DNA of 64,000 bases from a virus. The translations under genes and the position numbers were made by a program. This document shows positions 9,521 to 64,000 of the stretch, piece by piece (the first letter of the stretch is position 1; each line of letters opens with the position of its first letter). Under the pieces are notes generated by a model. It had not been told where the DNA came from and searched no databases. It was given only the letters and a program-made list of their open reading frames with translations. Location: IMG/VR virus record IMGVR_UViG_3300038443_002312, positions 32,001 through 96,000 of that record; one strand, written 5' to 3'.

Positions 9521-9538
9521 GTCGGATTTTTGCAAGAT

Positions 9539-10432: not shown

Positions 10433-10542
10433 TCCGGAACTCCGTCACGGGGTCGGGTCACTCGCCGCCGTCGTCCTTCCAGGCCCGGATAATGCCGTAA
10501 GCCAGCAGGGCCTGGGACCCATCTCGGCCTCCCGGGTCAGTT

Positions 10543-11270: not shown

Positions 11271-11299
11271 GTTACTACCCCTCGCCAAGCGGTTGGCAC

Positions 11300-13223: not shown

Positions 13224-13750
13224 CGGCGCGGCCCTCCCGCCAGCCCGTTGGCCGGCTGGTACCGGTCCCGGAGCCGGGTCACGCCCTTCCAGCCGCGGAA
13301 CAGGTCCAGTTCCTGGCCCAACCCGTGGTCCATGAGCCAGTCCTCGATGACGGAGTCGGGCGTCACCCCCGGGGCCAGGTCGGTGGCCAGGGCGACGATC
13401 GCGGCCCGCACCGCCCGGCTGCGGACGACCGCAACATTTTGGCGGAGGGCCGGCAAAGAGGCGACCACGACCGCCTGCCCCGCGGGGGCGACCACGGCCC
13501 GCCACGGAGCGTCGACGAACACCTCGTACCCGGCGAACAGGAGCGGTTGCAGCCAACCGAGGGAGTGCGTGCTGTACCGGTAGACCCCGGCCCACAATTC
13601 GGCCGGCAGTTGCCAGTCCGGCGGCCCTTCCAGCCGCCGGGGCAGTTCGGGGTGGCCCACGGTCATGGCGCTCCAGGCGTGCGCGACCGCCCCGTCCCGG
13701 GCGATCTTGACCTGGTGCCTCTGGTAGCCGAACGGCTCGACGGTGATCAC
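13220..13750 (-). CDS. Hypothetical protein
   Basis: C-terminal VIEDWLMDHG motif reminiscent of TIGR02996. Confidence 0.55.
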   Translation of the reverse strand: MITVEPFGYQRHQVKIARDGAVAHAWSAMTVGHPELPRRLEGPPDWQLPAELWAGVYRYSTHSLGWLQPLLFAGYEVFVDAPWRAVVAPAGQAVVVASLPALRQNVAVVRSRAVRAAIVALATDLAPGVTPDSVIEDWLMDHGLGQELDLFRGWKGVTRLRDRYQPANGLAGGPRR

Positions 13751-13752
13751 GC

Positions 13753-14421
13753 CTACCCCCGGGCCAGGGCCACGCACGCGCGGCACACGAGCAGGTACCG
13801 CCCCGGGTTCCGCATCTTACCCGCCAACACGTCCGGGTTCGGGACCCGGTTGATTTCGTCCGCCCACACCCGGGCGATGCAGGCGTGGCAGGTCAGGAGC
13901 AGTCGCACGTGGGGCGGTCTCAGGTGGTCCGGGATCGCCGCCGTCCCCATCTCGCGGACGGCGGCCAGGACCTCCGGGTCGGGCCCCAGTTTCTTGGCGA
14001 CCATGACCAGCGGGTCGCTGCCGTGTTGCGCGTACTCCCGGGCGTGCTCGCGGACGGCGAACTCCAGCTCCGCCCGGAGCGGGTCGACCGCCGGCCCGCC
14101 GACGCGGCCGACGACCTCGTCGGCCAGGGCGGCCGCCGGGGCCAGGTCGTCCGGGTCGCGGAGGACGGCCAGGGCGAGGGCCACCACGGCCGACCGCGGG
14201 CCGGTCAACACCTCGTCCGAAACCCCCGCGAGGAGGTTGACACACCCGGCGATCCGGGCGGCCGCGACCACGTCCCGCTCGCCGGTCGTGTAGTCGGCAC
14301 CCACCAGCGTCACCCGGTTCCCGGCGGCATCGTCCAGCCGCGGATAAGACCCGGGCCAACCGATCTGGTTGTGGATCTGGTTGTGAAGACTGACCCGCCA
14401 CGGCTCGCCGTAGGTGCTCAC
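13753..14421 (-). CDS. Paralog family member 1 (YGEPW/CVNLLAGV/PDDL/VCRxC)
   Basis: Shared motifs with the three upstream genes. Confidence 0.75.
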   Translation of the reverse strand: MSTYGEPWRVSLHNQIHNQIGWPGSYPRLDDAAGNRVTLVGADYTTGERDVVAAARIAGCVNLLAGVSDEVLTGPRSAVVALALAVLRDPDDLAPAAALADEVVGRVGGPAVDPLRAELEFAVREHAREYAQHGSDPLVMVAKKLGPDPEVLAAVREMGTAAIPDHLRPPHVRLLLTCHACIARVWADEINRVPNPDVLAGKMRNPGRYLLVCRACVALARG

Positions 14422-15038
14422 GCCCTCGCCCCCGGCCGCGCCGCCGCGACGCACTTGCGGCACACGCGGAACGTCCCGTGGGTCGGGACGAGCACGTACA
14501 GCCCGTCCCGGTGCCCGCCCATCTCGTCCCAGCAGCACTCGCACCGGGTGCCGGCGTCATCCGGCCAGTACGTCCAGTCGTCGGCGGCGATCTCGGCCGG
14601 GACCGCGGCCAGGACCGCCGGGTCGGGCCCGAGCCCCCGGACCAGGTCGACCACCCCGGCCCGGGACAGCGCGTCCCGCACGTGAGCGGGCACGAGCGAC
14701 AGCTGGCGGGCGACGGCCCGGAGCGCGGCGAGCAGATCCGCCCGCGGCGGGGACGCCCCGGCCTCCTGCCCGGTCGCCCGGGCCATGACCTCGTCCGCGG
14801 CCATCGCGGCCGGCGTCAGGTCGTCCGGGTGCCGCAGGATGGCCAGGGCCAGGTCCGTCAGGTCCCCGCCCCGCCCGGTCAGGGCCGCGTCCGGGACGCC
14901 CGCCAGGAAGTTGACGCACGCGATGGCCCGGTGCTCGCGCTGCCACGTGCCGTACCCGCGGGCGACCATCTCGTCGTCCCGGTCGACGATCGCCCCGCCG
15001 ATGCCGGTGTGGGCCCAGGGCTCGCCGTAGTCGGTCAT
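14418..15038 (-). CDS. Paralog family member 2
   Basis: YGEPW...CVNFLAGVPD...LALAILRHPDDLTPAAMAADEV...VCRKCVA. Confidence 0.75.
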   Translation of the reverse strand: MTDYGEPWAHTGIGGAIVDRDDEMVARGYGTWQREHRAIACVNFLAGVPDAALTGRGGDLTDLALAILRHPDDLTPAAMAADEVMARATGQEAGASPPRADLLAALRAVARQLSLVPAHVRDALSRAGVVDLVRGLGPDPAVLAAVPAEIAADDWTYWPDDAGTRCECCWDEMGGHRDGLYVLVPTHGTFRVCRKCVAAARPGARA

Positions 15039-15715
15039 ACCCCACCCCCGGTGACCTCGGCCACGCACGCCCGGCACACCGGGACGGCCCCGGCGGCGGC
15101 CGACCGGGCCACCCCGGCGAACCCGTCGTAGTTCTGGAGCAAGTAGCACCCGCCGCACCGGAACGGCATCCGGACGGCCTCCCCGCCGTACCCGACGTGC
15201 TCGCGGATCGCCGCCGCCACGTCCGGGTCGATCCCGAGGGCCCGGGCGGTCGCCAGGGCCTCGCCGCCGACCCAGCCCATCTCGTCGACCCGGGGGTGCC
15301 GGGCCACGTGCCGCAGGATCTTCTCCAGATCCGCCCGCGGGACGAACGGCCGGCCGTCCGCGTGCGCCACCGCCCGGGCCTGGACCTCGTCGGCCGCCAT
15401 CGCCGCCGGGGTCAGGTCCCCGGGGTTCCGCAGGATCGCGAGCGCCAGCCCGGTCAGTTCGTCCCGCGGGGCGGCGCCCAGGAGGGCGTCCGGGACCCCG
15501 GCCAGGAGGTTGACGCACCCGACCGCGCGGAGGGCCATGAGACTATCGAACGTCGACGGCCTCCCGTTGCAGCTGAACCGGCCGACCCGCGTGTCGTCGG
15601 TGCCGGACTCGTCGACCTCCTCGGCCGTCCGGACCCGGGTGGCGTGGACGTCCGACCCCCAGCCCGAGACCCCGAGGCCGAGGCTCCACGGCTCGTGATA
15701 GTTCGGCCCGCTCAC
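15035..15715 (-). CDS. Paralog family member 3
   Basis: YHEPW...CVNLLAGVPD...LALAILRNPGDLTPAAMAADEV...VCRACVA. Confidence 0.75.
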   Translation of the reverse strand: MSGPNYHEPWSLGLGVSGWGSDVHATRVRTAEEVDESGTDDTRVGRFSCNGRPSTFDSLMALRAVGCVNLLAGVPDALLGAAPRDELTGLALAILRNPGDLTPAAMAADEVQARAVAHADGRPFVPRADLEKILRHVARHPRVDEMGWVGGEALATARALGIDPDVAAAIREHVGYGGEAVRMPFRCGGCYLLQNYDGFAGVARSAAAGAVPVCRACVAEVTGGGV

Positions 15716-15990
15716 GCCCGCTCCAGTTCGATGTCGTAGGTCTGCCGCCCGTCGACCAGGCGCTTCGTCTTGCCCGACCAGTCGGCCCCGGGCGGGTTCC
15801 ACATGACCGTCCCGGCCTGCCACCACACGCGGTCGCCGACCCCGACGGCGACGGCCTCGCCCGTGTCCCGGCGGACCTCGCGGACAACGACCGCCCGCTC
15901 CCGCCCGGCGTCGGGGCCCTGGCCGTCTACGACCAGGACCGCCGTCCCGTCCCGCTTCCGGACCACCCCGGCCACGACCCCGCCGATCAT
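15712..15990 (-). CDS. Hypothetical protein (OB/SH3-like)
   Basis: MIGGVV...VGVGDRVWWQ; GGAGG RBS. Confidence 0.6.
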   Translation of the reverse strand: MIGGVVAGVVRKRDGTAVLVVDGQGPDAGRERAVVVREVRRDTGEAVAVGVGDRVWWQAGTVMWNPPGADWSGKTKRLVDGRQTYDIELERA

Positions 15991-16032
15991 CGCGAACCTC
16001 CTGCCAGCCCGTTGGCGTCCCGCGGAACTCCG

Positions 16033-16743
16033 TCACGCCCCCGGGCCAGCCGGGCCCGCGCACGTCCGGCACACGAGCACGTGCTCCCGCCCCGCCGGAA
16101 TAATGACGTCCCCCGCCGTCGTCCGCTCGGGCGTCCGGGTGACCCACACCCCGCCGGCCAGGTCCTCTTGCCACCGGGATCGGCCGCAGCCCGCGCACGT
16201 GAACCAGCCGGGGAGGCGGCCGGGCGTCGTAAACTCGCCGCCGGCCGCCCGGATCGCGTCGAGGACCGCCGGGTCAGGGCCGATCGCCTCGACCACGCGG
16301 TCGACCTGGTGCCGGGCGAGGCCCTTCAGATCCTCCGGGTGGACCGGCGAGGCGTCGCGGCCCGCGAGCAGGCGGACCACGTGCTCCAGTTCCGCCCGCG
16401 GGACGAACGCCCGGCCCTGGGCCCCGGCGGTCCGCTCGGCCACCCGCTCCTCGACGAGCTTGTCCAGGAGCCCGTCGTCCGGGGCCCGCCCGGCGAGCAC
16501 GGCCAGGGCGAGGGCCTGGGTGTCGGTCAGCCGCCCGGCGTCGTCCTGGGCCAGGATCAGGTCGGCGGCCGCGATCGACTCGCCGGACCACACCCCGGCC
16601 CAGCCGACCGCCTTGACCCACCGCCACGCCGGCCCGTCGTTCACGGCGGCCCCGACCCCGACGGCCGCGAGGTGACACCCGCCGTCGTGCAGCCGGAAGC
16701 GGTAGACGCCGGGCGTCAGGGCGTTCAACTCCTCCCGGGTCAC
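16033..16743 (-). CDS. Paralog family member 4 (different N-terminus)
   Basis: LALAVLAG...FVPRAEL...IGPDPAVL...VCRTC. Confidence 0.7.
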   Translation of the reverse strand: MTREELNALTPGVYRFRLHDGGCHLAAVGVGAAVNDGPAWRWVKAVGWAGVWSGESIAAADLILAQDDAGRLTDTQALALAVLAGRAPDDGLLDKLVEERVAERTAGAQGRAFVPRAELEHVVRLLAGRDASPVHPEDLKGLARHQVDRVVEAIGPDPAVLDAIRAAGGEFTTPGRLPGWFTCAGCGRSRWQEDLAGGVWVTRTPERTTAGDVIIPAGREHVLVCRTCAGPAGPGA

Positions 16744-19797: not shown

Positions 19798-20520
19798 TCA
19801 GGCCGCCCCCGTGTCCATGAACCCGGTGAAGTCCATCCGCCCGGCCAGCCGGGCGAGGATCTTGACCTCCAGCTGCCGGACCCGCTCGCGGGTGATCCCG
19901 AAGGTCGCCCCGACCGCGTCCAGGGTCAGCCCCTCGACGAACCGCAGGCGGACGACCTCGGCCTGCCGCGGGTCGAGCCAGCGGTTGACCTCCCGCCAGA
20001 ACGCCGCCCGGTCCAGGCTGGCGCCGCCCTCCTCGGTCGGGTCCCGCTCGGTGTCGTCCGCGAGCAGGGGCCCGCGCGGCGACCGGGTGAGGTCCCCCTT
20101 CGTCGCCCCGATCGGCTGGTCGAGCGAGACCGGGCGGTGGACGTAGCGCATCTCGGTCTCGTTCGGGACCCGGGCCCCGGCGTTCGACTCGCGGGCCCGG
20201 AACCGGCGGAGGCGCATCTCGACCCAGTAGGTGGCGTAGGTCAGGTACGACGTCCCGCGGGTCGGGTCGTACCGCCGGGCCGCGAGGACCAGGCCCACGA
20301 CCGCCTCCTGCCGCATGTCGTCGAGGGCCACCGCCGCCCGGTTCATCTGCCACCACCGGTACGCCAGCCCGAAGGCCAGCGGGCGGAACCGGACGACGAC
20401 CGCCTCGCGCTCCGGGGCGGTCAGGTAGGGCAGGTCGGCCGCGGGGCCGCCGTCGTCCGCGAGGCGGCCGAGGGCCGCCTCGTCCGCCCCGTCCCACTCG
20501 ACCGGGGTGGCCCGCCTCAG
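19798..20520 (-). CDS. Sigma-70 family RNA polymerase sigma factor (start uncertain)
   Basis: Region 2 DMRQEAVVGLVLAARRYDPTRGTSYLTYATYWV; VSLDQP; region 4 TLDAVGATFGITRERVRQLE. Confidence 0.85.
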   Translation of the reverse strand: MRRATPVEWDGADEAALGRLADDGGPAADLPYLTAPEREAVVVRFRPLAFGLAYRWWQMNRAAVALDDMRQEAVVGLVLAARRYDPTRGTSYLTYATYWVEMRLRRFRARESNAGARVPNETEMRYVHRPVSLDQPIGATKGDLTRSPRGPLLADDTERDPTEEGGASLDRAAFWREVNRWLDPRQAEVVRLRFVEGLTLDAVGATFGITRERVRQLEVKILARLAGRMDFTGFMDTGAA

Positions 20521-21125
20521 CGGGGGCGGGTCAGTTCCTCCAGCCGCCGCTCCCCCGCCGGGGTCAGCCGCCACTTCGCCCCGGTCGACCACCCGGTCAG
20601 CTGGAACAGGTGGCGGTGGACCGCCATCGCGTTCCGGGTCGACTGGGCCGACCGGCCGACCGCCCGGGCCAGCACGGTCACCTTGGTCGGCCCGCCCGCG
20701 AGCAGGCGGATCAGGCGGTCCACGACGTCGCCCCCGGCTGGGACCGGGTCCGGGGCGACGGCTTTTCCCGGTGGGGCCGCCGGGCGGTCCGGCCGCGGCG
20801 GGGGCGGGGCGAAGCAGGGGGCCGGGGGCGGTGGCCCCGGGTCCGGCTGGTCGGGGTCCGGCGCCCGGGCCGGCAGCGCGTCGACCAGTCGCGGCGGCGC
20901 GTCCCGGGCGACGACGACCAGGGCGGCGATGGGTCCGGCCTCGGCGACCACCCGGACGGCCTCCCGGCCCAGCAGGCGGGCCAGGGCGTTCCGCTGGGCC
21001 ACGAATTCGGCCAGCCGCGCGTCGGCCGCCGCCAGCGTGTCCGCCGACACCCGCGGCAGGACCGCGAGGAAGGCGGCCCACGGGTCGCCTTCCGCCGCCG
21101 TCAGTTCTGCGGGCGACTCTCCCAC
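20517..21125 (-). CDS. Hypothetical protein with C-terminal wHTH-like segment
   Basis: GPTKVTVLARAVGRS...WRLTPAG. Confidence 0.6.
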   Translation of the reverse strand: MGESPAELTAAEGDPWAAFLAVLPRVSADTLAAADARLAEFVAQRNALARLLGREAVRVVAEAGPIAALVVVARDAPPRLVDALPARAPDPDQPDPGPPPPAPCFAPPPPRPDRPAAPPGKAVAPDPVPAGGDVVDRLIRLLAGGPTKVTVLARAVGRSAQSTRNAMAVHRHLFQLTGWSTGAKWRLTPAGERRLEELTRPR

Positions 21126-51177: not shown

Positions 51178-51206
51178 TTGAACCGACGGACGTGTGAGGC
51201 TAGAAT
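51178..51206 (+). promoter_or_regulatory. Antisense sigma70-like promoter TTGAAC-N17-TAGAAT
   Basis: Correct spacing, followed by short transcript and terminator. Confidence 0.65.
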
Positions 51207-51211
51207 TGCCC

Positions 51212-51289
51212 TCGCGTCGGTCGGTTCCCCTGCCAAGGGACCGTCGCACTCAGGACCGCGGTGGTTAGCGCCACCGCGGTCTTTTTCTT
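51212..51289 (+). ncRNA. Putative ~80-nt antisense regulatory RNA
   Basis: Promoter, hairpin GGTTCCC-CTGCCAA-GGGACC, terminator hairpin. Confidence 0.5.
51254..51289 (+). terminator. Rho-independent terminator
   Basis: GACCGCGGTGG-TTAGCG-CCACCGCGGTC then TTTTTCTT. Confidence 0.75.
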
Positions 51290-51298
51290 CCCAAACAC

Positions 51299-53836: not shown

Positions 53837-54868
53837 TCAGCGGTCGACGACGACCAGGCACGTCTTGACGCCGGTCGAGCGGAACGCCCCCTCGAACGCG
53901 CCGTCCGGGAGGTCGTACCGCTCCCCGCCGACCTCGTCGAACCACTCGCGGAACTCCGCCGCCTTCCGGTCCGCCCGGAAGAACGGGCCGGTCGACATGA
54001 CGGACACGAGTCGTCCGCCGGGCCGCAACAGGGCGTGTGCGTGGCGGACGTGCAGGATGTCCTGGCCACTTTCAAAGGGGGGATTGGCAAGAACCCGATC
54101 GTACAACTCGGCGCGGGCCGTCCAGCTTCTCCCGGTAGCGTCCATTTCAGATGGCAACTGTTCCGGGGCTGGCAACTGAAGGAAGTCCTCACCGATCACC
54201 GTGTGCCCCTTCGCGGTCAGGATCTCCCGCAATTGGTGGTTGATCTCGCACACGTCGACCGCCGCGTCGGGGAACGCCCCGCGGACGGCGTCGGCGATGT
54301 CCCCCTTGCCGGCCGACGGTTCCAGGACCCGCAACCCGGTCTTCCCGAGGACGTCCGCCAGGTCGATCATCCGGGCGATGACCGGGGCCGGGGTCGGGAA
54401 GAACCCGGGGATCTGGGCGAACCGGACGCGGGCCTCCAGGTCGCGGATCTTCGCGACCCGCGCCGCCTCTTCCTGCGCCGCCTTGTCCTCCGGCGACTGC
54501 CGGCCGTCCAGCCACTCCCGCAGGGCGACGGCCGTCTTGCTCGTGTCGTGGAACTCCCCGGTGTCGCGGAGCGAGTAGTGCCCGCCGGAATGGTCGACGC
54601 GGGTGGCCAGCATGGCCAGGAGTTCCTTCTTGCCGGCGATCCCGCCCAGGGCGGGCGGGCACCGGCCGGCCTCGTGCGCGTCGGCCAGCTTGAGGAGCGC
54701 GCCCCGGACCCGGGCCAGGTGGTCGGCCTCGATCCGGGCCGACGCGGCCTGCATCTGCCGCTTCGGGGTGTTGTCGAGGCGGGGGTGGCGCTTGTCGGCG
54801 ATTTGCTTGGCCAGCGTCTCGGCCAGCTTGCGGAACCGGGGGGCAATGCTCGCGGTCTTCGGTGGCAT
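53837..54868 (-). CDS. Class I SAM-dependent (gamma-type N6-adenine-like) DNA methyltransferase
   Basis: FFPTP; VLEPSAGKG; NPPF; LRPGGRLV; F...GV. Confidence 0.85.
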   Translation of the reverse strand: MPPKTASIAPRFRKLAETLAKQIADKRHPRLDNTPKRQMQAASARIEADHLARVRGALLKLADAHEAGRCPPALGGIAGKKELLAMLATRVDHSGGHYSLRDTGEFHDTSKTAVALREWLDGRQSPEDKAAQEEAARVAKIRDLEARVRFAQIPGFFPTPAPVIARMIDLADVLGKTGLRVLEPSAGKGDIADAVRGAFPDAAVDVCEINHQLREILTAKGHTVIGEDFLQLPAPEQLPSEMDATGRSWTARAELYDRVLANPPFESGQDILHVRHAHALLRPGGRLVSVMSTGPFFRADRKAAEFREWFDEVGGERYDLPDGAFEGAFRSTGVKTCLVVVDR

Positions 54869-55344: not shown

Positions 55345-55836
55345 TCACTCCAGGTCCTCGCGGACGTCGGCCTCCAGCGTTTCCAGGGCCGCAATCGTGC
55401 CGCCGACCTTCTCGGCCACGGCGGCAATTTCGCTCTCCAGGGCCTGGAGGGCCTTGCGGTGCTCGTCGGCCGCGGTGCTGTCCTCCGGGGCGTCGGGGAC
55501 CTTGATCGCGGTCAGCCGGTCCCAGGTTTTGTCGAGGTCCTTCGCCAGCCTGTCGGCGCGGGTGGTTACCGCCTCGAACACGTCGTCCGCGCCGGCCGCC
55601 TGGCCGGCGAACTCGTCGGCGATTTCCAGCAGGCGGCCGACGTTGACGGGGCGGCCGAGTGCGTGATTGGTCTTCTCGTACTCCAGGTCGTTGAGGAGGG
55701 CCTGGTGCTCAGGCGACAGGGGCCGCTTGGGTTTGCTCGGCTTTTTGGCCGGCTCCGGCGGGGCCGCGCGGCGGGGTTTGGCCGGCCGCTTGGCGGTGGC
55801 CGGGTTCGGGGCCGCGGGGGCTTTCTTGCGGGGCAT
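55345..55836 (-). CDS. Hypothetical protein, basic N-tail plus helical bundle
   Basis: ATG 55836 with GAGG. Confidence 0.6.
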   Translation of the reverse strand: MPRKKAPAAPNPATAKRPAKPRRAAPPEPAKKPSKPKRPLSPEHQALLNDLEYEKTNHALGRPVNVGRLLEIADEFAGQAAGADDVFEAVTTRADRLAKDLDKTWDRLTAIKVPDAPEDSTAADEHRKALQALESEIAAVAEKVGGTIAALETLEADVREDLE

Positions 55837-55898
55837 GTGGGGGCCTCTCGGGGGATCGGGCAGGGGCCGGGCGGTGCGGGTGGCACCGGGCCGGCCGG

Positions 55899-56528
55899 TC
55901 AGGCGGCGGCCGCCGGTTTGCGGCGGCGTTTGCGGGGGCAGAGGGCCAGGGCGGCGAGGTAGGCGCGGACGTGCTCGGTCGGGTGGCCGTGCTCGTCGAG
56001 CCAGTCCGCGGCCGCGCCGATGCCGGCGGCGTCGTCCCAGGTGACGTGGGCCCCGCCGCCGGGGGCCGCGAAGAACGCGGCCCGGATGGCCGGGGTGAGT
56101 TCGGCCATCACCTGGGCGGCGAGCAGGGCCCCGCGGAACACCTCCGACGGGGTCGCCTTGGCCCAGCGGACGGCCGCCGTGCCGTAGCCGAACGGGTAGG
56201 CCGAGCGGTCGCCGCGGAGGCTCCGCGGGGCCGTCATGCGGGCCACGTGGATGAGCACGTACCGGGTGCGGGTCGCCGGGTCGGTGAGCCACGCGTAGCC
56301 GGCGACGGTGCACGTCCGGTGGGGGACCGGGAGGTCGGCCGCGTGGGCGTGCCGGGTCGCGACCCCGTGGCCGCTCGACGCCATGTGGAACTCCGGGTGC
56401 CGCCACTCGGCCGGCAGGACGTCCAGGGCCGCCAGCCGGTTGGCGTGGCCGGCGTTGGCCAGCTCGCACATCCGGCGGAGTTCCGCGTTGACGGTTTCGA
56501 GCGTCGGATTGACCAGTAGTTTCACCAT
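55899..56528 (-). CDS. Hypothetical protein with C-terminal TIGR02996-like motif
   Basis: DDAAGIGAAADWLDEHG; spans the CCC/GGG boundary. Confidence 0.65.
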   Translation of the reverse strand: MVKLLVNPTLETVNAELRRMCELANAGHANRLAALDVLPAEWRHPEFHMASSGHGVATRHAHAADLPVPHRTCTVAGYAWLTDPATRTRYVLIHVARMTAPRSLRGDRSAYPFGYGTAAVRWAKATPSEVFRGALLAAQVMAELTPAIRAAFFAAPGGGAHVTWDDAAGIGAAADWLDEHGHPTEHVRAYLAALALCPRKRRRKPAAAA

Positions 56529-56595
56529 GTGTGGACCTCCGGAACACGTTCAAGACAGGCGACCGGACGGCGGTAAGGCGGTGCGGTCGGTGCGG

Positions 56596-56838
56596 CTAGG
56601 CCGCGCAGTAAGGCTTCCAGTTCCTGACTTGCTCTCCGTTGAACCATCGTCCTTCATCGTGGTACAGATCGAATAGCCAACCGGATGACTTGAGAGATTC
56701 GGCCTCTCGCTTCGTATCGACCGTGGCCAGAGTTCCGCCGGACTTGTTACGCAGCCTCCATTTCCGGCCGTGTTTTTGGACGGTCCAACCGGACGGCGGA
56801 TCGGCGTCATGTTCTTCCGGTGTTGCGTGCAACGCCAT
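56596..56838 (-). CDS. Early small hypothetical protein
   Basis: CCTCGCGAGG RBS cassette. Confidence 0.7.
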   Translation of the reverse strand: MALHATPEEHDADPPSGWTVQKHGRKWRLRNKSGGTLATVDTKREAESLKSSGWLFDLYHDEGRWFNGEQVRNWKPYCAA

Positions 56839-56899
56839 GTGTGGACCTCGCGAGGAAGAGAACAGGACCGGCCGGCGGACTTCTCCGCCGGCCGGCCGA

Positions 56900-57148
56900 T
56901 CACACTTGCTCGAATCCGAAGTAGTCGGCGCCGCCACGGCCATCCTGACAGTCCACTACGCTGTACGTCTCATCCGGTTCGTCCGAGTTGAGGTACCGGA
57001 TGATTAACCACCAGCGGCCATGTTCAAATAGCGTGTCGAACCGGCGGTTTCTGGACTGGCGGCCGAACTGCGCGACGGCGGCGCGTCGGACCGCGGTTTC
57101 CGTCTTCCGGTCGTCAACTTCCGACGGTAGCGGCTTGCTGGTCGTCAT
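56900..57148 (-). CDS. Early small hypothetical protein
   Basis: RBS cassette; FEHGRWW..TYSVVD. Confidence 0.7.
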   Translation of the reverse strand: MTTSKPLPSEVDDRKTETAVRRAAVAQFGRQSRNRRFDTLFEHGRWWLIIRYLNSDEPDETYSVVDCQDGRGGADYFGFEQV

Positions 57149-57212
57149 GTGCGGACCTCGCGAGGATAGGACCAGGCGGCCGACCGGCAGTGAGGCACGG
57201 CCGGCCGATCGG

Positions 57213-57482
57213 CTAGTAACCGGCCATGCCGGTCGTATCTCGGCCGAGTCGGTTCAAGAGGTGATAGACCGCGTTCGCGGCATAGTTCGGTTGCATCCAA
57301 ACGCCTTCCTCCAGGAAGCGTTCGGTAGCGTACAACTCCGGAAGGACGACCGTTTCCGGCTTCTCGCCGATTCGGATGTACAAGTCATTGCACCAGTCGG
57401 CAACCGTCGGCGCCGACCGTTCGTAGTATTCGGCAATCGCGGTTAGCTGCGCTTTGATGGACTCTATCCAGTGTTGCGCCAT
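57213..57482 (-). CDS. Early small hypothetical protein
   Basis: RBS cassette. Confidence 0.7.
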   Translation of the reverse strand: MAQHWIESIKAQLTAIAEYYERSAPTVADWCNDLYIRIGEKPETVVLPELYATERFLEEGVWMQPNYAANAVYHLLNRLGRDTTGMAGY

Positions 57483-57548
57483 GTGCGGACCTCGCGAGGA
57501 TGGAACGAAGTCCGGCCGGTCCGCGGTGGCGGATTCCGGCCGGTGCGG

Positions 57549-57815
57549 TCATTCGTCGGCCTGGTCGTCCGGTTCGTCCGGTTCCACCAGGTCCGTTTCC
57601 GCGGTCTGATCAATCAGGACAAAAGAGGTGTCGTCGTCCGTGGCGCAAATGTGCAACTCGCCGGAACCGGTCCGCGAGTTGTACCGATAGGTAATCCGGA
57701 TCGAAACACCTGAAACGGTGGCGCCGTCGGCCGTCCGGAACGGCAGGAAATCCACTACGGCGGAGCTGTCCGGCTGTTCGACCGTCAGTCGCGGACTCTT
57801 GCGGTCGTCTGGCAT
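57549..57815 (-). CDS. Early small acidic protein
   Basis: RBS cassette; D/E-rich C-terminus. Confidence 0.65.
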   Translation of the reverse strand: MPDDRKSPRLTVEQPDSSAVVDFLPFRTADGATVSGVSIRITYRYNSRTGSGELHICATDDDTSFVLIDQTAETDLVEPDEPDDQADE

Positions 57816-57877
57816 GTGCGGACCTCGTGAGGAAGACAGGCGGACGCACCGGCCGGCGGCCGGACGCGTCCGAGGAC

Positions 57878-58165
57878 TCAGGCCACGCAATCGGCCGGAA
57901 TCCGGAACTCGGACCGGAACGGCGCGTCGTCCAGGTCGGCCGACCAGTCAGACCGGCTGACGTCTCCGGCCTGGTTGCAGTGCGCGACGCGGACGGTCAC
58001 ACCGGCCGCGATCAGGCCGCGACAATACCATTCACAGTCACGAAATGAGCCTTGTACCAACCGCCGCGCGTGGCGGCCGGACGCCTTGAGGCGGTCGCCT
58101 TTGTTCACGGCAAACACGTTGGCGATGCCAACCTGGTAGACCAAATAGGCGGTGTGGACCGGCAT
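57878..58165 (-). CDS. Early small hypothetical protein
   Basis: LVYQVGIANVF...HCNQAGD. Confidence 0.7.
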   Translation of the reverse strand: MPVHTAYLVYQVGIANVFAVNKGDRLKASGRHARRLVQGSFRDCEWYCRGLIAAGVTVRVAHCNQAGDVSRSDWSADLDDAPFRSEFRIPADCVA

Positions 58166-58233
58166 GACGGAACCTCCGGAACGGAATCGAAAAAGGCGGC
58201 CGGCCGGCGGCGAGGCACGGTCGGCCGAGAAGA

Positions 58234-58437
58234 CTACTTGCGATACTGGCCGAGTTCGCACACCACTTGCCTAGTGTGATCGGTCAGGCTCGCTTTACAC
58301 GTCGCTTTGGTTCCGGAGACGACCAGGACCGGCTGACCGTCACGCATTTCCATAAGCGCGAACTTGTGCGCGGCCGGAATGGTGCCGATGTTCTCGGACA
58401 GCCACCGCGCCGGAGAATTCGGAGCGCCGACAGGCAT
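58234..58437 (-). CDS. Early small hypothetical protein
   Basis: RBS cassette. Confidence 0.65.
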   Translation of the reverse strand: MPVGAPNSPARWLSENIGTIPAAHKFALMEMRDGQPVLVVSGTKATCKASLTDHTRQVVCELGQYRK

Positions 58438-58536
58438 AGCGAACACCTCGCGAGGATAGGACCAGTCGACCGGACGGCAGTGAAGCCGGTCCGGCACAGG
58501 CGGCCGGCCGGCGGTGAAGCCGGTCCGGCCGAGAAC

Positions 58537-59076
58537 TCAGACGGCGGCCGCCATCAGGACCGCACCGGCCGCGGCACGTGCCGCGAGGTCGGTTTCGCGC
58601 CAGGACCACGGCGCCGCCTCCAATTCCGGCCACGGCTCGCGGCGCCACTGACGCGCGGCGCCGCTCCGGCACCAGGCCGCGTACTTCGCGGCCGGTTTGT
58701 GCCGCGCGTGGATTTCCTCGATCACGGCATCGCACAATTTCTTGGCGGCACACTCCGACCAGGCCGGATGCTCGCACGCCTGGTAGGCGTAACAGCGCGC
58801 GAGGTTGTACAGTTCGGCCGCGGTCGGCCGGTAGCCGCGGTCGGTCCACGTGTACGCTTCCAGGTGATCCGGCGATCCTGGCAGTTCGTCCGGCCGGTCG
58901 CGCGGATACCGGTAGGCCACGGACCGGACGTTCTCGGCCGCGAGCATCGCGCCGAGCGAGTCGCGGCCGATGACGGCGCGGCGGTCGGCCGGCCGGATGA
59001 TTCCGTCCGACGTGCCGTCGAGGATGCCGGTCACGAGTAGGTCAATGTGCACGTTGCTGACGACGAACGCACTCAC
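58537..59076 (-). CDS. Conserved phage/plasmid hypothetical protein
   Basis: MSAFVVS..HID.LV...ENVRSVAYRYP...CYAYQACEHP.W. Confidence 0.75.
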   Translation of the reverse strand: MSAFVVSNVHIDLLVTGILDGTSDGIIRPADRRAVIGRDSLGAMLAAENVRSVAYRYPRDRPDELPGSPDHLEAYTWTDRGYRPTAAELYNLARCYAYQACEHPAWSECAAKKLCDAVIEEIHARHKPAAKYAAWCRSGAARQWRREPWPELEAAPWSWRETDLAARAAAGAVLMAAAV

Positions 59077-59174
59077 GGCGGAGACCTCGCGGAACACCGG
59101 CCGCCGGACTGGCGGCCGGAAGCGGCCGGCGGCACTCCGGAGAGCGCCGCCGGCCCGGTTTTGGGCCGGCCGGT

Positions 59175-59585
59175 CTAGTTGTCCGAAACGACGTGCGCGA
59201 ACGCCTCCGCCACGGCCGGCGGCCAACCGGACCACGTGGCGAGCGCCGCGAGGTCGGCCGGCTTACCGGACAGCGCGGCGCGGTAGGCCGCGTTCACCTC
59301 CGGAATCGAGCCGGTGAAGAACCGCGCTTTCTCGGACTGCCACGTGCGGCCGTCGGCGCCGGTATAGCTCGTGTGCGTCGGCACGTCCGGCGCGTCGAAT
59401 ACGACCACGGCGGCCGCGTGGCCGGACCTCTCCGGCCACGCGGCGATCGACCGGACGGCGGTGCCGTCGTCGGTCGGAACCACCAGGATCGTGGCGCCGT
59501 ACCGCGCGTCCGGATTCTTCTGGCCGTAGATTTCTTTGACGGCGGCGCCGGTCGCCGTGGTCTTCTCGCGGATGATCACTTTCAT
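59175..59585 (-). CDS. Early hypothetical protein
   Basis: ORF track; pyrimidine tract upstream. Confidence 0.65.
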   Translation of the reverse strand: MKVIIREKTTATGAAVKEIYGQKNPDARYGATILVVPTDDGTAVRSIAAWPERSGHAAAVVVFDAPDVPTHTSYTGADGRTWQSEKARFFTGSIPEVNAAYRAALSGKPADLAALATWSGWPPAVAEAFAHVVSDN

Positions 59586-59709
59586 CGGACGGACTCACCA
59601 GGAAGGAAAGGAACACCGGAACTGGAGGACTCCGCCACGTGGCGGAAGGCCGGACGGCCGGCCGGTAGGCCGGACCGCCGGAAGTGCCGCCGGTCCGCTG
59701 GCGCCGTAG

Positions 59710-59925
59710 CTACGGCGCCGTTGGACCGGCCGGCCGATCGGACCTGGAGCCGTCGCCGGACTGGCTCTTTCTAGACCGATTGCGAGAGAAGAACGCGTTG
59801 ATTTGCGCGAGCGACCGGCCGCCGTCGCTCTCCGGATGGTAGACGCCGGAACCGAAGCAGGCCGGACAGTCCGGATCGCCACAACACGGATACACCTGGT
59901 CGGCCGGTAGCGTCTGGTCGTCCAC
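59710..59925 (-). CDS. Early small Cys-cluster protein
   Basis: PCCGDPDCPACFG; RBS cassette. Confidence 0.6.
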   Translation of the reverse strand: MDDQTLPADQVYPCCGDPDCPACFGSGVYHPESDGGRSLAQINAFFSRNRSRKSQSGDGSRSDRPAGPTAP

Positions 59926-59964
59926 GTGCGGACCTCGCGAGGAAGGAAGGACCGGCCGGCGCGA

Positions 59965-60231
59965 CTACTTAGCGCCGCGCGTCCGGTCCAGGAGCTTCAA
60001 GGCCGTGTCGATCATGCGCGCCGTCGGCATCGCGCGGTATCGCGCCTGATTGTCCGCGCCTAGCTTGTCGTGGACACCGACCACCAGGCCGGCCGTTGTC
60101 AGGTCCACCGTGATACCGTCGATTTTCGCGTAACTCTTGCGGTCCACAACCGACCGGAACGCGGCCACGCGCTCCTCTCCGGTCGCGCACGTATGGACCG
60201 GCGTTCCGCCGGTCCGCTTGACGGTTGACAT
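59965..60231 (-). CDS. Early small hypothetical protein
   Basis: IDGITVDLTTA..VV.VHDKL...NQ; RBS cassette. Confidence 0.7.
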   Translation of the reverse strand: MSTVKRTGGTPVHTCATGEERVAAFRSVVDRKSYAKIDGITVDLTTAGLVVGVHDKLGADNQARYRAMPTARMIDTALKLLDRTRGAK

Positions 60232-60298
60232 GTGTTCACCTCGCGAGGAAGGAAGCCAGGACCGGCCGGCGGACTTCTCCGCCGGCCGGCCGGTCCGG

Positions 60299-61675
60299 TC
60301 AGTTCCGGACGGCCGCCGTGGCCAGCTGGTACGCGGTCTGTTTGATGTCGTCTCCGGCGCCGGAGATGACGCTTTCGAACCGCGCCGACCGCTTGGCTTC
60401 CTCGGACCTCGCACGGCTCTTGCCGCCGAGTTTGCCGTGGTCCACCGATTCGGTTACCGCGTTGAACGCGGACCAGGCCGAACCGCGGATGCCGCCGACG
60501 CCGTTGGTGTCGGAGTGGTAGCGGTCGAGCACGTCCTCTAGCAGTTCCTTCCGGTGCTTGGCTTCCGCCTCCAACCGCTTCTTTTCGTACTCCTGCTCCG
60601 CACGCGTCACCTTCAGAGTTCGCGCCACCGCGTCAATGCCGGTTTCGAGCTGCGCCGCCGTGATGTCGCACACCGAATCGAGTAGGCCGTTGAAGTAGGC
60701 CAGCGGTTCCATCGGCGTTCGCGCCATCACTTCGGCCGACTCGCGGAACTCCTCGAACTCCTCCACCGCGAGGCCGAGCGCTTCGGCGGCCGCCTTGCGC
60801 TTCGCCTGGAGGTTGCCGGTGTGGCGGATCGTAATGCCTTTTGACCGGTCATCCTTGTCGGCCATCCGCAGCGTGTTCGCGCAGACCACGCGGTGCGCCG
60901 TCGGAAAGCACTTCGCAGCCTCCGTGCCGTCGTGCGCGTTCGTGAACAGCGCGAACGGCTTGATTTCGTCTCCGGCCGTGACACGGAACGCCTGCTTTGG
61001 CAGGTGTACCAGCATCCACACTTTCTTGCCGCCGTGGATCGCGCCGGCGGTTTCGTACCTGGCGCCGAACCGCTCTAACAGGCCGTCAAGGAACTTGAAC
61101 GCGTCCTCGTTCTGGAACGGTTGGTACCGGCCGCCGACCGAACCGAGATAGGCGCCGGTGTCGTCGCGGCTGATCGCGAACGTGTCCGGCGCCTGGATGA
61201 CCTCGCCGCGCGCGTTGGTGAACGTCATGTCTCGCTTGCTCACCTTCCAGTTCAGGCCGGCGAGCGTGATTGCGTCGGTGGACGTTACCGCCGACTCGAC
61301 GTTCACGCCGAGACCGTGCCACGGCGCCGCACCGGCCACCATCACCGATATCCGGCCACCGGACGTGTCCAGGCCGGCGCGGCGGATGGCGGCCGACATG
61401 ATGACGGCGCGGTCATTCTCCGGTAGCGCCATCACCAGCGGATGGATTCGCGCCTGATAGACCGCGTCGGACTCGCCGGACTTCCGGCGCAGTTCCTGGT
61501 ACGCGCCGCACCGGATCATTTCGCCAGGATCGGACAGACCGGCGACGTAGTTGATGCTGGTGATGTCGCGGTTGGCCGTGATGATCCGCGGCCCGGAGGC
61601 GGCCGGACCGGACGCCGGTTCGGACGTGCGGCCGGCGACGGTCGCGGCGAGCGCGGCGTTAATGAGATCGGACAT
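60299..61675 (-). CDS. DUF932 (TIGR03299-like) phage/plasmid protein
   Basis: PWHGLG, AGLNW, YQPFQN.DAF, YETAGA..GG..VW, NAHDG, RVVCANTL, IRHT, AW.AFNAVTE. Confidence 0.9.
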   Translation of the reverse strand: MSDLINAALAATVAGRTSEPASGPAASGPRIITANRDITSINYVAGLSDPGEMIRCGAYQELRRKSGESDAVYQARIHPLVMALPENDRAVIMSAAIRRAGLDTSGGRISVMVAGAAPWHGLGVNVESAVTSTDAITLAGLNWKVSKRDMTFTNARGEVIQAPDTFAISRDDTGAYLGSVGGRYQPFQNEDAFKFLDGLLERFGARYETAGAIHGGKKVWMLVHLPKQAFRVTAGDEIKPFALFTNAHDGTEAAKCFPTAHRVVCANTLRMADKDDRSKGITIRHTGNLQAKRKAAAEALGLAVEEFEEFRESAEVMARTPMEPLAYFNGLLDSVCDITAAQLETGIDAVARTLKVTRAEQEYEKKRLEAEAKHRKELLEDVLDRYHSDTNGVGGIRGSAWSAFNAVTESVDHGKLGGKSRARSEEAKRSARFESVISGAGDDIKQTAYQLATAAVRN

Positions 61676-61839
61676 TGTGGAACCTCCGGATAAGGACCGG
61701 CCGGCCGGTCCGCGGCACCACGCCACGGTTACCGGCCGGCCGAGTGAGGCGACCGGCGATTAGGCCGGTCGCGACCTCGCGAGGAAGGATACAGGCGACG
61801 GACCGACCGGCCGGCCGGCCGGCCGAGTCCGCCGAGTGG

Positions 61840-62103
61840 TCAGACCGCGACCTCGCGCAACCGAGCGTACAGGTTGCGGAGTTGTCGGCGGTATTGCGTC
61901 TCGTTCGGCCGGACGTCCGGCGAGCGGACGGACCGGAAGCCGCCGTACTCCATCGTCCAATCGGCGAACGCGCGGACCATGCCGTCCGCGTGCGCCAGGT
62001 ACACTTTCGGCCGGTCTTTCAGGTCCTGGACCAGGTGTTGCATTTCGTCAAGGTCTTGGTTCGCGTAGGTGTGGACACGCGTAACCGGAATCGCGGTGAG
62101 CAT
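61840..62103 (-). CDS. Early small hypothetical protein
   Basis: CCTCCGGAGG RBS. Confidence 0.7.
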   Translation of the reverse strand: MLTAIPVTRVHTYANQDLDEMQHLVQDLKDRPKVYLAHADGMVRAFADWTMEYGGFRSVRSPDVRPNETQYRRQLRNLYARLREVAV

Positions 62104-62182
62104 CGGTAGACCTCCGGAGGAGCGAGCAAGGCGGCCGGTCCGCCGGACTGGCGGAGTCGGCCGAGTGCCAACCGGTTGGCAG

Positions 62183-62392
62183 TTACCGCACGTGCTCCAG
62201 AGTGCAGAGCACCGGCGGAGTTCCGAGGACCACGGCGGCCGATATGCTCTGACACTCGATCCATTCGTCCGAGTGCCACGGCTGCACTCGGATCGTTCCG
62301 TCCGAGTGCCGGAGGACCGGCCGGCCGTTGTCCAGTGTGTGCACGATTTCCATGACGTTCACCTCAGTATCCGAGGACTCGAAACCGGACAT
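62183..62392 (-). CDS. Early small hypothetical protein (alternative start ~62353)
   Basis: RBS. Confidence 0.6.
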   Translation of the reverse strand: MSGFESSDTEVNVMEIVHTLDNGRPVLRHSDGTIRVQPWHSDEWIECQSISAAVVLGTPPVLCTLEHVR

Positions 62393-62514
62393 AGGCTAGG
62401 ACCTCCGGAAGCGTCACATAGCGGAACACTAGCACGGCCGAATCCTCCGGCGGACCGGCCGCACCAGGCGACCGCGAGCGGACCGGCCGGCCGGTAAGCC
62501 GAACCGGACCAGGT

Positions 62515-62781
62515 TCACACCTCTTTCGCTTCCGACCGGCCGACGTTCTTCCAGGATTGCACGTCTAGAATGCAGTCGCGCGACCGTTCCGACGGCGGAT
62601 AGATGCGGAAGAGGCGGCCGGAATACGGATGCTCAAACATGCCGTCCTTCACCGTGGCCACGAAATCGTCGCGGTGGAAGTAGGCCGAACCGGTCACCTG
62701 GTTGTTGGCGATTTCGAACGTGACCGTGATATCGCGCCGCTCCGGCGCCGTGATACCGTCGTCGAACCGAACTACCAGCAT
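62515..62781 (-). CDS. Early small hypothetical protein
   Basis: RBS cassette. Confidence 0.7.
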   Translation of the reverse strand: MLVVRFDDGITAPERRDITVTFEIANNQVTGSAYFHRDDFVATVKDGMFEHPYSGRLFRIYPPSERSRDCILDVQSWKNVGRSEAKEV

Positions 62782-62842
62782 GGCGGAACCTCGCGAGGAA
62801 GGAAGGCGGCCGGCCGGCGGTGAGGCACGGTCGGCCGATTGG

Positions 62843-63037
62843 TCAGTTAACCGCCTTATAGCAGTTGCACGGAAACTGATGAGCGATCCGGTTTAACCGG
62901 TCGTACTCCGCCTCTCCGACCAGGCGGACCAGGCCGGCGGCCGAAATCGTGTCAGACGTGCCGTCGGAGAACTTCACCGAAAAACCGGACCAGGACCAGG
63001 ACCAGAGGATATGCGTAACCGTCGGAGTGGTCGGCAT
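62843..63037 (-). CDS. Early small hypothetical protein
   Basis: RBS cassette, ATG 63037. Confidence 0.65.
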   Translation of the reverse strand: MPTTPTVTHILWSWSWSGFSVKFSDGTSDTISAAGLVRLVGEAEYDRLNRIAHQFPCNCYKAVN

Positions 63038-63102
63038 GGCGTACACCTCGCGAGGAAGGAACGAAAGCGGACCGGCCGGCGGCGAAGCCGGACCGGACCA
63101 GG

Positions 63103-63282
63103 TTAATCAATCGGAACGACCTCGGTTTCCGCTCTCCAGTGTTTCCGGTAGAACGCCGATAGCTCGTTTGCTTTGTCGGCATCGAACCGGACTGCCGTTT
63201 CGCTGTTGCCGATCCGCTCGCCTCTCTCGTGAATGAACCACGTCTGTCCTTCAGCAGTCACTTTTACGATGAACTGTCGCAT
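63103..63282 (-). CDS. First early gene, 59 aa (absent from ORF track)
   Basis: MRQFIVKVTAEGQTWFIHERGERIGNSETAVRFDADKANELSAFYRKHWRAETEVVPID*, hand-translated. Confidence 0.6.
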   Translation of the reverse strand: MRQFIVKVTAEGQTWFIHERGERIGNSETAVRFDADKANELSAFYRKHWRAETEVVPID

Positions 63283-63318
63283 GAAACGGACTCTTTAGAG
63301 TGAAGGAATACAGGAAAG

Positions 63319-63384
63319 GCATCCGTTCCGGAATCGAACCGGACCGGCGGCCGAAACCGCCGGAGCGCCAACCGCTCGGATTGC
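63319..63384 (-). ncRNA. tRNA-like cloverleaf in early leader (not a canonical tRNA)
   Basis: T-arm TCCGG-TTCGATT-CCGGA; D-like AGCG-GTTGG-CGCT; 7-bp stem with 6-nt loop; GCA(A)TCCG/CGGATGC closing stem. Confidence 0.5.
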
Positions 63385-63743
63385 TCGCAAGCGAGCGTGC
63401 CAGACAGGCGACTCACCGGCCGCCTGTCTTGTGTTGTGGACGTCGTATCCGGCCTGTGGCGCCGGACAGCGGACTAGAGGTTACACACCTGATTTGCCAC
63501 CGCACGTGATTCCGCAGACTCTTTCCGGACCTGTGCGAGCGTCCGGCCAACCGACCGGTTTCGAGCAACGCGGCACACCTCTACCGGCTCTTGTGAGCCG
63601 TCTTAGTGTGTTCCACAACCGGCGGACCTGTGCGAGTGGTTTCGAGATGTCAAAGATCGGCGTGCCGACTGGCGGTTACCGCGTGCGGCCTACTCGGCCG
63701 GTCCTGTCATTCCGACCAGGCCGTTCGCCGCACCGGTGTAGAG

Positions 63744-63775
63744 GAGTTTATACTAAACTCTCTCTCTCGTGTCAA
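63744..63775 (-). promoter_or_regulatory. Strong sigma70 early promoter TTGACA-N17-TATAAA with inverted repeat GAGTTTA-tac-TAAACTC over the -10
   Basis: -35 at 63770-63775, -10 at 63747-63752. Confidence 0.85.
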
Positions 63776-64000
63776 CCGGTCCTGCCAATTTTTTGTCAGG
63801 CCGGTTTGTCGCGGCCGGCCGGTTTGCGGACGGCCGGCCGCGGCGAGAGAAGACAAAGCACGGCGCGTGCCGTTCGGCCGAATCTTGCCAATAAATTGTC
63901 GGACCGGCCGGTTTCGCGTTATACGCTCGTCTGGCGGCCGACCGGCCGCGGCCGCAGCTGACCACGGTCCGCGGCCGACCGGACGCCACGCGTGCGTTAA

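Follow-up and report, generated by a model that had tools for sequence, protein, structure and literature searches.

Start-associated sequences (SAS) have been described in Cluster K mycobacteriophages (2011, PMC3203893; 188-genome survey, PMC12699233) as boxes that contain a Shine-Dalgarno (SD) sequence and precede 11–19 non-structural genes; these genes are unrelated, share one orientation and start preferentially with ATG (PMC3203893; PMC12699233). Some SAS have inverted repeats upstream, at a variable distance, and are then called extended SAS (ESAS), and the function of SAS is still unknown (PMC3203893; PMC12699233). The arms of ESAS are a conserved 17-mer, which pairs poorly and was proposed to be a DNA site (PMC3203893). 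In T4-type phages, promoter early stem-loops (PeSLs) combine a stem-loop terminator with an early promoter (Arbiol et al., 2010, PMC2839356; Comeau et al., 2014, PMC4122927), and recombination between PeSL copies has been implicated in gene gain, loss and swapping (PMC2839356; PMC4122927). Here, we describe repeated intergenic elements, hereafter connectors, that separate the genes of an array in an uncultivated phage. The DNA analyzed, hereafter the window, comprises 64,000 nucleotides (bases 32001–96000) of the 115,673-bp virus record IMGVR_UViG_3300038443_002312, which is estimated to be 71% complete and has an overall G+C content of approximately 75%.

The array consists of 17 co-directional genes (g1–g17; minus strand, 55899–63282), which were called from the length of the open reading frame (ORF), a G+C content at third codon positions (GC3) above that at second positions (GC2) and a ribosome site. 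A preliminary description of this DNA had recognized the array but put it at approximately 16 small genes; there are 17 genes and 16 junctions, and one gene encodes a 458-aa DUF932 protein. The junctions followed the order of stop codon, GC stem-loop, spacer of 12–20 nt, box, 6 (sometimes 7–8) nt and start codon, and the whole connector, typically 60–70 nt long, contained no promoter (Table 1). The stem-loop was present at 16/16 junctions, began 1–10 nt past the stop codon (once, it spanned the stop codon) and had a stem of 11–22 bp with a free energy (ΔG) of −13 to −47 kcal/mol. The box had the form (CCU)CGCGAGGU or (UU)CCGGAGGU and was usually located 6 nt ahead of AUG. The spacers were 80% pyrimidine and 36% U, compared with 50% and 16.5%, respectively, in the mRNA of the surrounding zone defined below (p = 5e-21 and 1.6e-13). 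Thus, the TTCCTT-type pyrimidine tract and upstream GC hairpin that had been noted before most boxes were found at all 16 junctions. The longest common substring had a mean of 12.2 nt and a maximum of 36 nt between connectors, compared with a mean of 7.0 nt and a maximum of 14 nt between coding segments of the same region, and the homology of the connectors (repeat family D3) started directly at the stop codon. Note that the public gene call of g10 begins 7 codons further upstream, within the box. The last six units (window 56526–58163) showed an even start-to-start spacing of 310, 310, 334, 333 and 350 bp.

No sigma-70-type promoter was detected inside the array: a consensus scan returned 0 promoter-like sites in 55500–64000, and a connector has no room for a promoter because only 12–20 nt separate the hairpin from the SD. 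The same scanner missed the candidate leftward early promoter, P_L (Table 1), because the last base of its −10 element is A. A second good promoter (TTGATT-N17-TAGACT; genome 96149–96177, plus strand) lies approximately 400 bp to the right of P_L in divergent orientation. P_L is preceded by the box TTGGCAGGACCGG, which the rightward promoter also possesses, and both divergent promoters (window 63747–63799, minus strand; L091:1136–1177, plus strand) are preceded by the identical 17-mer TTGNCAGGACCGGTTGA. An A/T-rich near-palindrome, CTGACAAAAAATTGGCAGG, was also observed before both promoters, with a third copy at 63884–63902 (minus strand). Since the divergent pair comprises the only good promoters and none lies in the array, the left arm is most simply one operon. 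The sequence is thus most simply read as the leftward arm of a divergent, host-promoter-driven early region, in which an operon of approximately 7.4 kb carries 17 mostly ORFan genes, and the earlier placement of the array in an early region was borne out.

The array of connectors lies wholly within a zone of 9.9 kb (window 56427 to genome 98345, which is L091:3345) that contains only five GGG or CCC, all of them in GGGCC/GGCCC, whereas approximately 40 each of GGG and CCC per kb were found outside the zone. Its edges are sharp and lie inside genes; the left edge falls in g17 (approximately 100 nt in) and the right edge in the sixth rightward gene. The G+C content is 72–78% genome-wide but 62–69% at window 56000–68000; similarly, GC3 is near 0.95 in the genome, nearly all genes of which are on the minus strand, and 0.63–0.86 in the zone. 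Because runs of three G or three C are barred in the zone, the GC stems of the hairpins are all composed of CCGG/GGCC units. A PAPS-reductase-like gene with a PP-loop (SGGKDS) adjoins the zone on the right (L091:4282–5280, plus strand); it appears to be split over two frames around a run of eight G, suggesting a frameshift or a sequencing error.

The palindrome CCTCGCGAGG was found in nine exact copies in the window (0.52 expected; at most 3 in any of 100 shuffles), all at 56846–63055 and none in the rest of the 115.7-kb genome. The variant CCTCGTGAGG occurs at 57823, and CCTCCGGA variants occur at 56536, 58173, 61683, 62111 and 62402. The count of nine exact palindromes agrees with that of the preliminary description. 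Its statement that most copies lie 7–8 nt before a start codon holds for eight of the nine exact palindromes, which end 7–8 nt before ATG/GTG on the mRNA (GAGGU-N6/7-start), but not for the ninth, which is an orphan at 61775 without a start codon. A start-linked box was carried in one orientation by 15/17 array genes, with GAGGU at position −11 in 11 of these 15 genes, −12 in three and −13 in one. When the 115.7 kb were scanned with a 29-nt matrix (21.7 bits) built on these 15 training sites, scores of at least 12 bits were obtained only for the training sites, the orphan (61778) and one weak intragenic site. Outside the zone, genes possess ordinary GGAGG-type SDs at a spacing of 3–12 nt, with flanks that are not conserved. 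The octamer CGCGAGGT occurs 29 times genome-wide; 13 copies have a start codon 5–8 nt downstream in the orientation of the gene. Of these, 10 belong to the left arm (minus strand) and three to the right arm (plus strand), whereas the 10 copies that lie outside the zone never precede a start codon. The three right-arm genes are thus headed by the core CGCGAGGU-N5-8-start in their own orientation, without hairpins. ATG was the start codon of 15/17 array genes, compared with 42/86 elsewhere (p = 0.003), where the starts are heuristic calls.

This orientation rule, which applies in both arms, fits a signal that is read on the mRNA, and the sequence points to the box being an orientation-bound, start-codon-linked signal for RNA or translation. 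The earlier proposal of an RNA-level signal is thus retained for the box, which is most simply read on the mRNA. In the box-headed genes, GAGG is the only SD and is flanked by conserved CGC before it and CCGCAC after it. The palindrome itself was incomplete in 6/15 boxes, which are not 10-bp palindromes. We also considered a mini-hairpin that sequesters the SD and rejected it, because the predicted folds of the start regions differed from gene to gene; as a structure, the self-complementary SD of the preliminary description therefore found no support. Since six of the 15 boxes are not palindromic, the flanks are asymmetric and the local folds are inconsistent, palindromy is probably secondary. 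The self-complementarity may merely arise where a pyrimidine tract abuts a purine SD.

The hairpins fall into sequence classes. The loop consensus GCYUCRCYGC (class L) was found in seven copies (63088, 62826, 58520, 58486, 58216, 57196 and 56579), all in the mRNA sense and all within the array. A class T pair, at 56863 and 60257, is 97% identical over 39 nt although the two copies are 3.4 kb apart. Both the loop consensus and the near-identical pair had been pointed out before and are real. The other hairpins are individual in sequence, and these and the class T hairpins were clearly more stable than their shuffled versions (z −2 to −5.4). The stems are mostly perfect and 11–15 bp long; helices of 19–22 bp are reached in only 3–4 connectors, among them the longest ones (before g4, g6 and g10). 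A terminator-like stem-loop (GC-rich, with a loop of 3–8 nt) was found at 16/16 junctions; the tails have approximately 4 U in 8 nt (36% U overall), which is an enrichment but not a canonical terminator tract. The few convincing terminator-like sites elsewhere in the window share this U/C tail (UUUUUCUUCC at 51283, plus strand; UUUGUCUUCUC at 63857, minus strand). G-U pairs were more common in the sense fold than in the antisense fold (27/328 and 10/319, respectively; p = 0.006). Covariation, which had been proposed as a check, was weak: among the seven class L copies, which come from one genome and have low-complexity stems, 2/11 pairs showed one double change each and several pairs were broken. 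No known RNA family in a search of the Rfam type scored above threshold.

The 17 proteins encoded by the array include no paralogs. The connectors thus flank unrelated single genes in the manner of cassette boundaries, as had been suggested. Only g6 (DUF932) belongs to a known family and the others are ORFans, for which Pfam, PHROG and the Atlas gave no lead; g10 has four distant homologs, and none was found for g9 among 5.8 billion clusters. With no Pfam or PHROG matches and almost no homologs, the idea that the cargo serves in anti-defense is unsupported. The g13 protein is very acidic (pI 4.1), which would be compatible with a DNA mimic but proves nothing. A short patch, FD..[DE][EH]GRW[WF], is common to g15 and g16 and was not significant.

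Near-identical relatives exist: a 24-kb contig encodes a protein with 99% identity to g6, and 5–7 contigs were found per cargo protein. Scans of IMG/VR with the exact box pattern yielded single chance matches only, and the box was not found in scans of metagenome contigs or genome contigs. With a relaxed pattern, no locus among 174 (1.8 Mb) had more than two matches, compared with 12 in the window. Searches for relatives through the methyltransferase-like protein, g17 and the terminase-like protein found none, and those through DUF932 led to phages at 39–49% identity, all with at most 63% GC.

Several connectors carry what may be scars. The connector before g6 contains the orphan box (61775–61784), which has no start codon and scores 21.2 bits on the box matrix, and this connector looks like the scar of a lost gene. 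Tandem class L hairpins stand before g11 (58465–58532), three other connectors have extra hairpins, and two connectors 3.4 kb apart share an identity of 36 nt. Judging from these internal scars, cassettes may have been turned over at the connectors. Integron-like cassettes were considered and rejected, as no attC cores (RYYYAAC/GTTRRRY) were found and the CCGG/GGCC-based stems lack a GTT core. Further, no tyrosine or serine recombinase or integrase was found in the 115.7 kb of this incomplete record.

We conclude from the sequence that the connectors are a genuine and new case of the poorly understood start-associated signals known from other phages. They resemble SAS and ESAS in position, orientation, ATG preference, restriction to non-structural genes, presence of an upstream inverted repeat and conservation beyond 16S rRNA pairing; as with SAS, an SD-containing box is found near the starts of unrelated genes and is accompanied by a preference for ATG. 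The box here is confined to the early zone. The sequences are, however, unrelated (GGGATAGGAGCCC in Cluster K; (CCU)CGCGAGGU(CCGCAC) here), and neither GGGATAGGAGCCC with up to two mismatches nor the 17-bp ESAS arms of the Cluster K consensus were matched here, the boxes being CCUCGCGAGGU or UCCGGAGGU. In contrast to ESAS, the inverted repeat is present at every junction, pairs well as RNA, falls into several sequence classes and is separated from the box by a pyrimidine spacer. The phage and host also differ, the phage here being GC-rich (75%) and uncultivated.

The connectors resemble PeSLs in that a composite, repeated intergenic stem-loop motif flanks single small ORFan genes of a plastic early region. 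Unlike PeSLs, they have no promoter, and the hairpin is fused to a ribosome site instead. Among the distant DUF932 phages, three (L090, at 4600–16500; L095; L097) have a hairpin/T-run, a GTTTACG −35 element, a TGGCAATAGTA −10 element and a GAAAGGGGA SD for each gene, and a fourth (L094, 4750–7520) has a promoter-operator-leader module, TTGCCAACCTAGCAAGATGATGCTAGGAT, with an internal palindrome. By their sequence, these per-gene units are PeSL-like. A further phage with 55% GC (L089) has, at 3168–3510, 4682–4800 and 11246–11330, arrays with a period of 37 nt, GAGCGAAGCCA...GAAAACTTCA, and an 11-nt tandem repeat, ACGCTTGTCGA, in eight copies near its DUF932 gene; they look iteron-like.

The RNase III sites of T7 are irregular structures of approximately two helical turns with an internal loop at the cut site. 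The connectors share with them the placement of stem-loops between cistrons of a host-transcribed early operon; however, the connector hairpins are mostly short, perfect and GC-based, and they lack both the length of two helical turns and the internal loop. A phage RNase III was not found in the 115.7 kb. The earlier analogy to T7 is therefore a poor fit. With the stoperators of L5-type (Cluster A) mycobacteriophages, which are mentioned in PMC3203893, the connectors have in common many short sites in short intergenic spaces, oriented with transcription and near gene starts or stops. Stoperators are asymmetric DNA repressor sites distributed genome-wide, whereas the box here holds the SD, keeps a fixed distance to AUG and is limited to the early zone. 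A functional analogy exists with RegA and RegB of T4, where a phage factor recognizes early genes by a feature of their ribosome sites and shuts them off together, but the motifs are unrelated. No RegA homolog was found in the 115.7 kb, and a control search for RegA matched nowhere either.

We favor, with moderate confidence, a reading in which the connector is a promoter-less unit composed of a leaky terminator or 3′-end insulating hairpin, a pyrimidine standby tract and a ribosome site of fixed geometry; for the part that concerns translation, our confidence is higher than for the whole. Host RNA polymerase would launch the 17-gene operon from the sigma-70-type promoter at 63775–63747 (minus strand). 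The GC-only stem-loop with its U/C tract would act as a weak intrinsic terminator or attenuator, and the hairpin would also protect the 3′ end and insulate the folding of the upstream cistron. The purine-poor, unstructured spacer of 12–20 nt would form a ribosome standby platform, and the extended ribosome-binding box, CGCGAGGU or CCGGAGGU, would stand 6 nt before AUG, the connector in this way supplying each foreign ORF with an identical translation start context. The connector would also mark the early genes in common, and a regulator could read this mark. As a side effect, shared connectors may turn single genes into exchangeable units. The distant DUF932 phages have a hairpin/T-run, promoter and SD at like junctions; by analogy, the hairpins here would correspond to the terminator half, and this phage would have dropped the promoter half of a PeSL-like unit.

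Several observations weigh against the leaky terminator and standby reading. A series of 16 terminators would shut down the distal genes if there were neither leakiness nor antitermination, and under a strict definition (at least 5 U in the 8 nt right after the stem) only the hairpin at 56897–56866 and a small one at 59634–59617 have a terminator U-tract. The class L hairpins do not exceed shuffles in stability (z 0 to −1.7) despite their conserved sequence; a YUCRCY loop that is kept while stability is unremarkable hints at specific recognition over plain structure. Overall, sense and antisense hairpins are equally stable. For three class L hairpins, the better fold is that of the opposite strand, and on that strand all seven class L loops become purine-flanked GNRA tetraloops (GUGA in four, GCGA in two and GUAA in one). 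Finally, pairing with 16S rRNA, if its 3′ end is taken to be the usual bacterial one, does not explain the conserved CGC and CCGCAC.

The conservation in excess of what ribosome pairing needs would be accounted for if the box, the YUCRCY-loop hairpins or both were mRNA sites for a phage or host protein that switches the whole early set. The reader could be a translational repressor or nuclease, as are RegA and RegB of T4, or an N/boxB-like antiterminator that carries transcription past the 16 hairpins. The seven conserved loops on hairpins that fold no better than shuffles, and a box limited to the early zone, unlike the SDs of all other genes, favor such a regulon, and the authors who described SAS arrived at the same open question (PMC3203893). 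Two right-arm genes encode conceivable readers: the first (L091:1230–1469, plus strand) encodes a 79-aa protein with an arginine-rich N-terminal segment, AKRRKALRRFR, and the fifth (L091:2622–3083, plus strand) has a weak match (22.4 bits; cut-off, 21.2) to the ASCH domain, a predicted nucleic-acid-binding fold. These candidates are, however, guesses from composition; CsrA, NusG and RNase III families, like RegA, were not found in the 115.7 kb, nut sites of the lambda type are found singly in an operon and not at seven junctions, and covariation is weak. We therefore consider this explanation possible but unlikely. A more specific form of it, in which an undescribed early-gene regulon is timed or shut off by a factor that reads the CGCGAGGU box and/or the YUCRCY hairpins, e.g., by antitermination, and in which GGG/CCC are barred from the module because it is needed before phage DNA-modification or takeover functions act, is more doubtful still. 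Processing as in T7, by which host RNase III or another endonuclease would cut the stems and yield monocistronic mRNAs stabilized by 3′ hairpins, could explain why hairpins lie between all cistrons of the early operon; the single-stranded U/C tract could admit endonucleases, and the 19–22-bp helices before g4, g6 and g10 speak in its favor. Most stems, however, are shorter than typical RNase III substrates and have no internal loop, the phage encodes no RNase III in the 115.7 kb and covariation gives no support, and we regard such processing as quite improbable.

The nine exact 10-bp palindromes, absent elsewhere in the genome, also invite a reading at the DNA level, in which CCTCGCGAGG and CCTCCGGAGG bind a dimeric protein that blocks early transcription in the manner of L5-type stoperators. 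The orphan copy without a start codon, the lack of a consistent RNA fold for the palindrome and the equal stability of the hairpins on both strands agree with an operator. We nevertheless judge it the least probable of the explanations considered here: 6/15 boxes are not 10-bp palindromes, conservation is asymmetric (a pyrimidine tract precedes the box core and CCGCAC follows it), the distance to the start codon is fixed, the core tracks gene orientation in both arms, GAGG is the sole SD of these genes, and lysogeny is unproven, no integrase having been found in the 115.7 kb. Alternatively, the connectors may be an evolutionary device or by-product, copied together with captured genes by recombination or gene conversion and having no function other than that of an ordinary SD and an ordinary hairpin; the ban on GGG/CCC would make the GC hairpins look alike. 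Alike connectors between unrelated cargo, the scars (orphan box at 61775, tandem hairpins at 58465–58532 and the 36-nt identity across 3.4 kb), the forcing of strong GC stems into CCGG/GGCC units and the precedent of PeSLs (PMC2839356; PMC4122927) speak for this explanation. It is rather unlikely, since the fixed spacing, ATG preference and pyrimidine bias point to selection on function, and the other arm uses the same core without hairpins.

The positions of the connectors and of the features that delimit the arm are listed in Table 1.

Table 1. Features of the leftward early arm, in window positions
Feature	Position	Strand	Description
P_L	63747..63775	−	Candidate leftward early promoter, TTGACA-N17-TATAAA; found by regular expression and reading of the sequence
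5′ leader	63283..63740	−	Structured, 458 nt, from P_L to g1; fold z −2.5
g1	63103..63282	−	59 aa; first gene of the arm, without start-associated box
Connector before g2	63038..63102	−	Class L (conserved-loop) hairpin, pyrimidine spacer, CCUCGCGAGGU-N7-AUG
Connector before g3	62782..62842	−	Class L hairpin, UUCCUUCC spacer, CCUCGCGAGGU-N6-AUG
Connector before g4	62393..62514	−	Long; two hairpins, CUUCCGGAGGU-N8-AUG
Connector before g5	62104..62182	−	GCCAACCGGUUGGC mini-palindrome, hairpin, CCUCCGGAGGU-N6-AUG
Connector before g6	61676..61839	−	Long; hairpin, orphan box, two further hairpins, UCCGGAGGU-N6-AUG
g6	60299..61675	−	458 aa; DUF932 (PF06067, phrog_1221)
Connector before g7	60232..60298	−	Class T hairpin (14 bp, GAAG loop), UUCCUUCC, CCUCGCGAGGU-N6-AUG
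Connector before g8	59926..59988	−	Hairpin with g7 stop codon in loop, UUCCUUCC, CCUCGCGAGGU-N6-GUG
Connector before g9	59586..59709	−	Long; several hairpins, UUCCUUUCCUUCC tract, variant box CCUGGUGAG
Connector before g10	59077..59174	−	Branched hairpin and 9-bp hairpin, UUCCGCGAGGU-N7-GUG
Connector before g11	58438..58536	−	Two tandem class L hairpins, CCUCGCGAGGU-N7-AUG
Connector before g12	58166..58233	−	Class L hairpin, CCUUUUUCG (most terminator-like tail), UUCCGGAGGU-N6-AUG
Connector before g13	57816..57877	−	14-bp hairpin, CCUCACGAGGU-N6-AUG; palindrome off by one base
Connector before g14	57483..57548	−	13-bp hairpin, CCUCGCGAGGUCCGCAC-AUG
Connector before g15	57149..57212	−	Class L hairpin, CCUCGCGAGGUCCGCAC-AUG
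Connector before g16	56839..56899	−	Class T hairpin, CCUCGCGAGGUCCACAC-AUG; also terminator-like in consensus scan
Connector before g17	56529..56595	−	Degenerate class L hairpin, UUCCGGAGGUCCACAC-AUG
g17	55899..56528	−	209 aa; last box-headed gene

The leader between P_L and g1 holds two exact copies of CTCGCACAGGTCCG (63636 and 63539). It also holds a piece that resembles the 3′ half of a tRNA (63320–63382), with a T-arm, GGTTCGATTCC, and an acceptor-like end. This piece gave a weak mascRNA/tRNA-like match in Rfam (E = 0.24), and ARAGORN predicted no tRNA there; it could be the remnant of an attachment site. An attempt to assign the host through this tRNA-like 3′ half was abandoned, as no exact match was found in 185,579 species genomes.

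Other genes of the phage encode a terminase-like protein, a helicase, Rad52, a ParB-N protein, a cpYpsA protein and a sigma-70-family factor. The presence of the latter (regions 2 and 4; window 19798–21081, minus strand) implies redirection of the host polymerase to later genes. A gene at 53837–54868 (minus strand), just downstream of the array, encodes a 343-aa protein that matches phrog_15406 (E = 8e-72); the matched domain lies in the interior of giant phage proteins that bear the annotation DNA methyltransferase.

At window 51178–51292 (plus strand), where the surrounding genes occupy the other strand, a candidate small RNA of approximately 80 nt was observed. Its sigma-70-like promoter, TTGAAC-N17-TAGAAT, lies approximately 45 nt ahead of a 14-bp GC hairpin that ends in a UUUUUCUUCC tail, and a GCCAAC-N4-GTTGGC motif lies just upstream (51135). 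A trans-acting role of this RNA (51213–51292, plus strand) at the array was rejected: its duplex energies with the start regions of the array were no better than those with random segments, and its CCUCGCG 7-mer sits at or before the predicted start.

Known since 2011, start-associated sequences still lack a mechanism. The phage described here is an unusually clean case, in which the element stands at every junction of a 17-gene operon, has three separable parts, is free of promoters and has its core in both arms. The co-location of the connector array and the GGG/CCC-poor zone brings together two oddities that may have one cause. If the connector is a portable terminator and ribosome pad, it would explain how unrelated ORFans can be plugged into an early operon with predictable expression, and it could serve as a building block in GC-rich hosts. 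Should a factor read the connector, it would represent a new switch for early genes.

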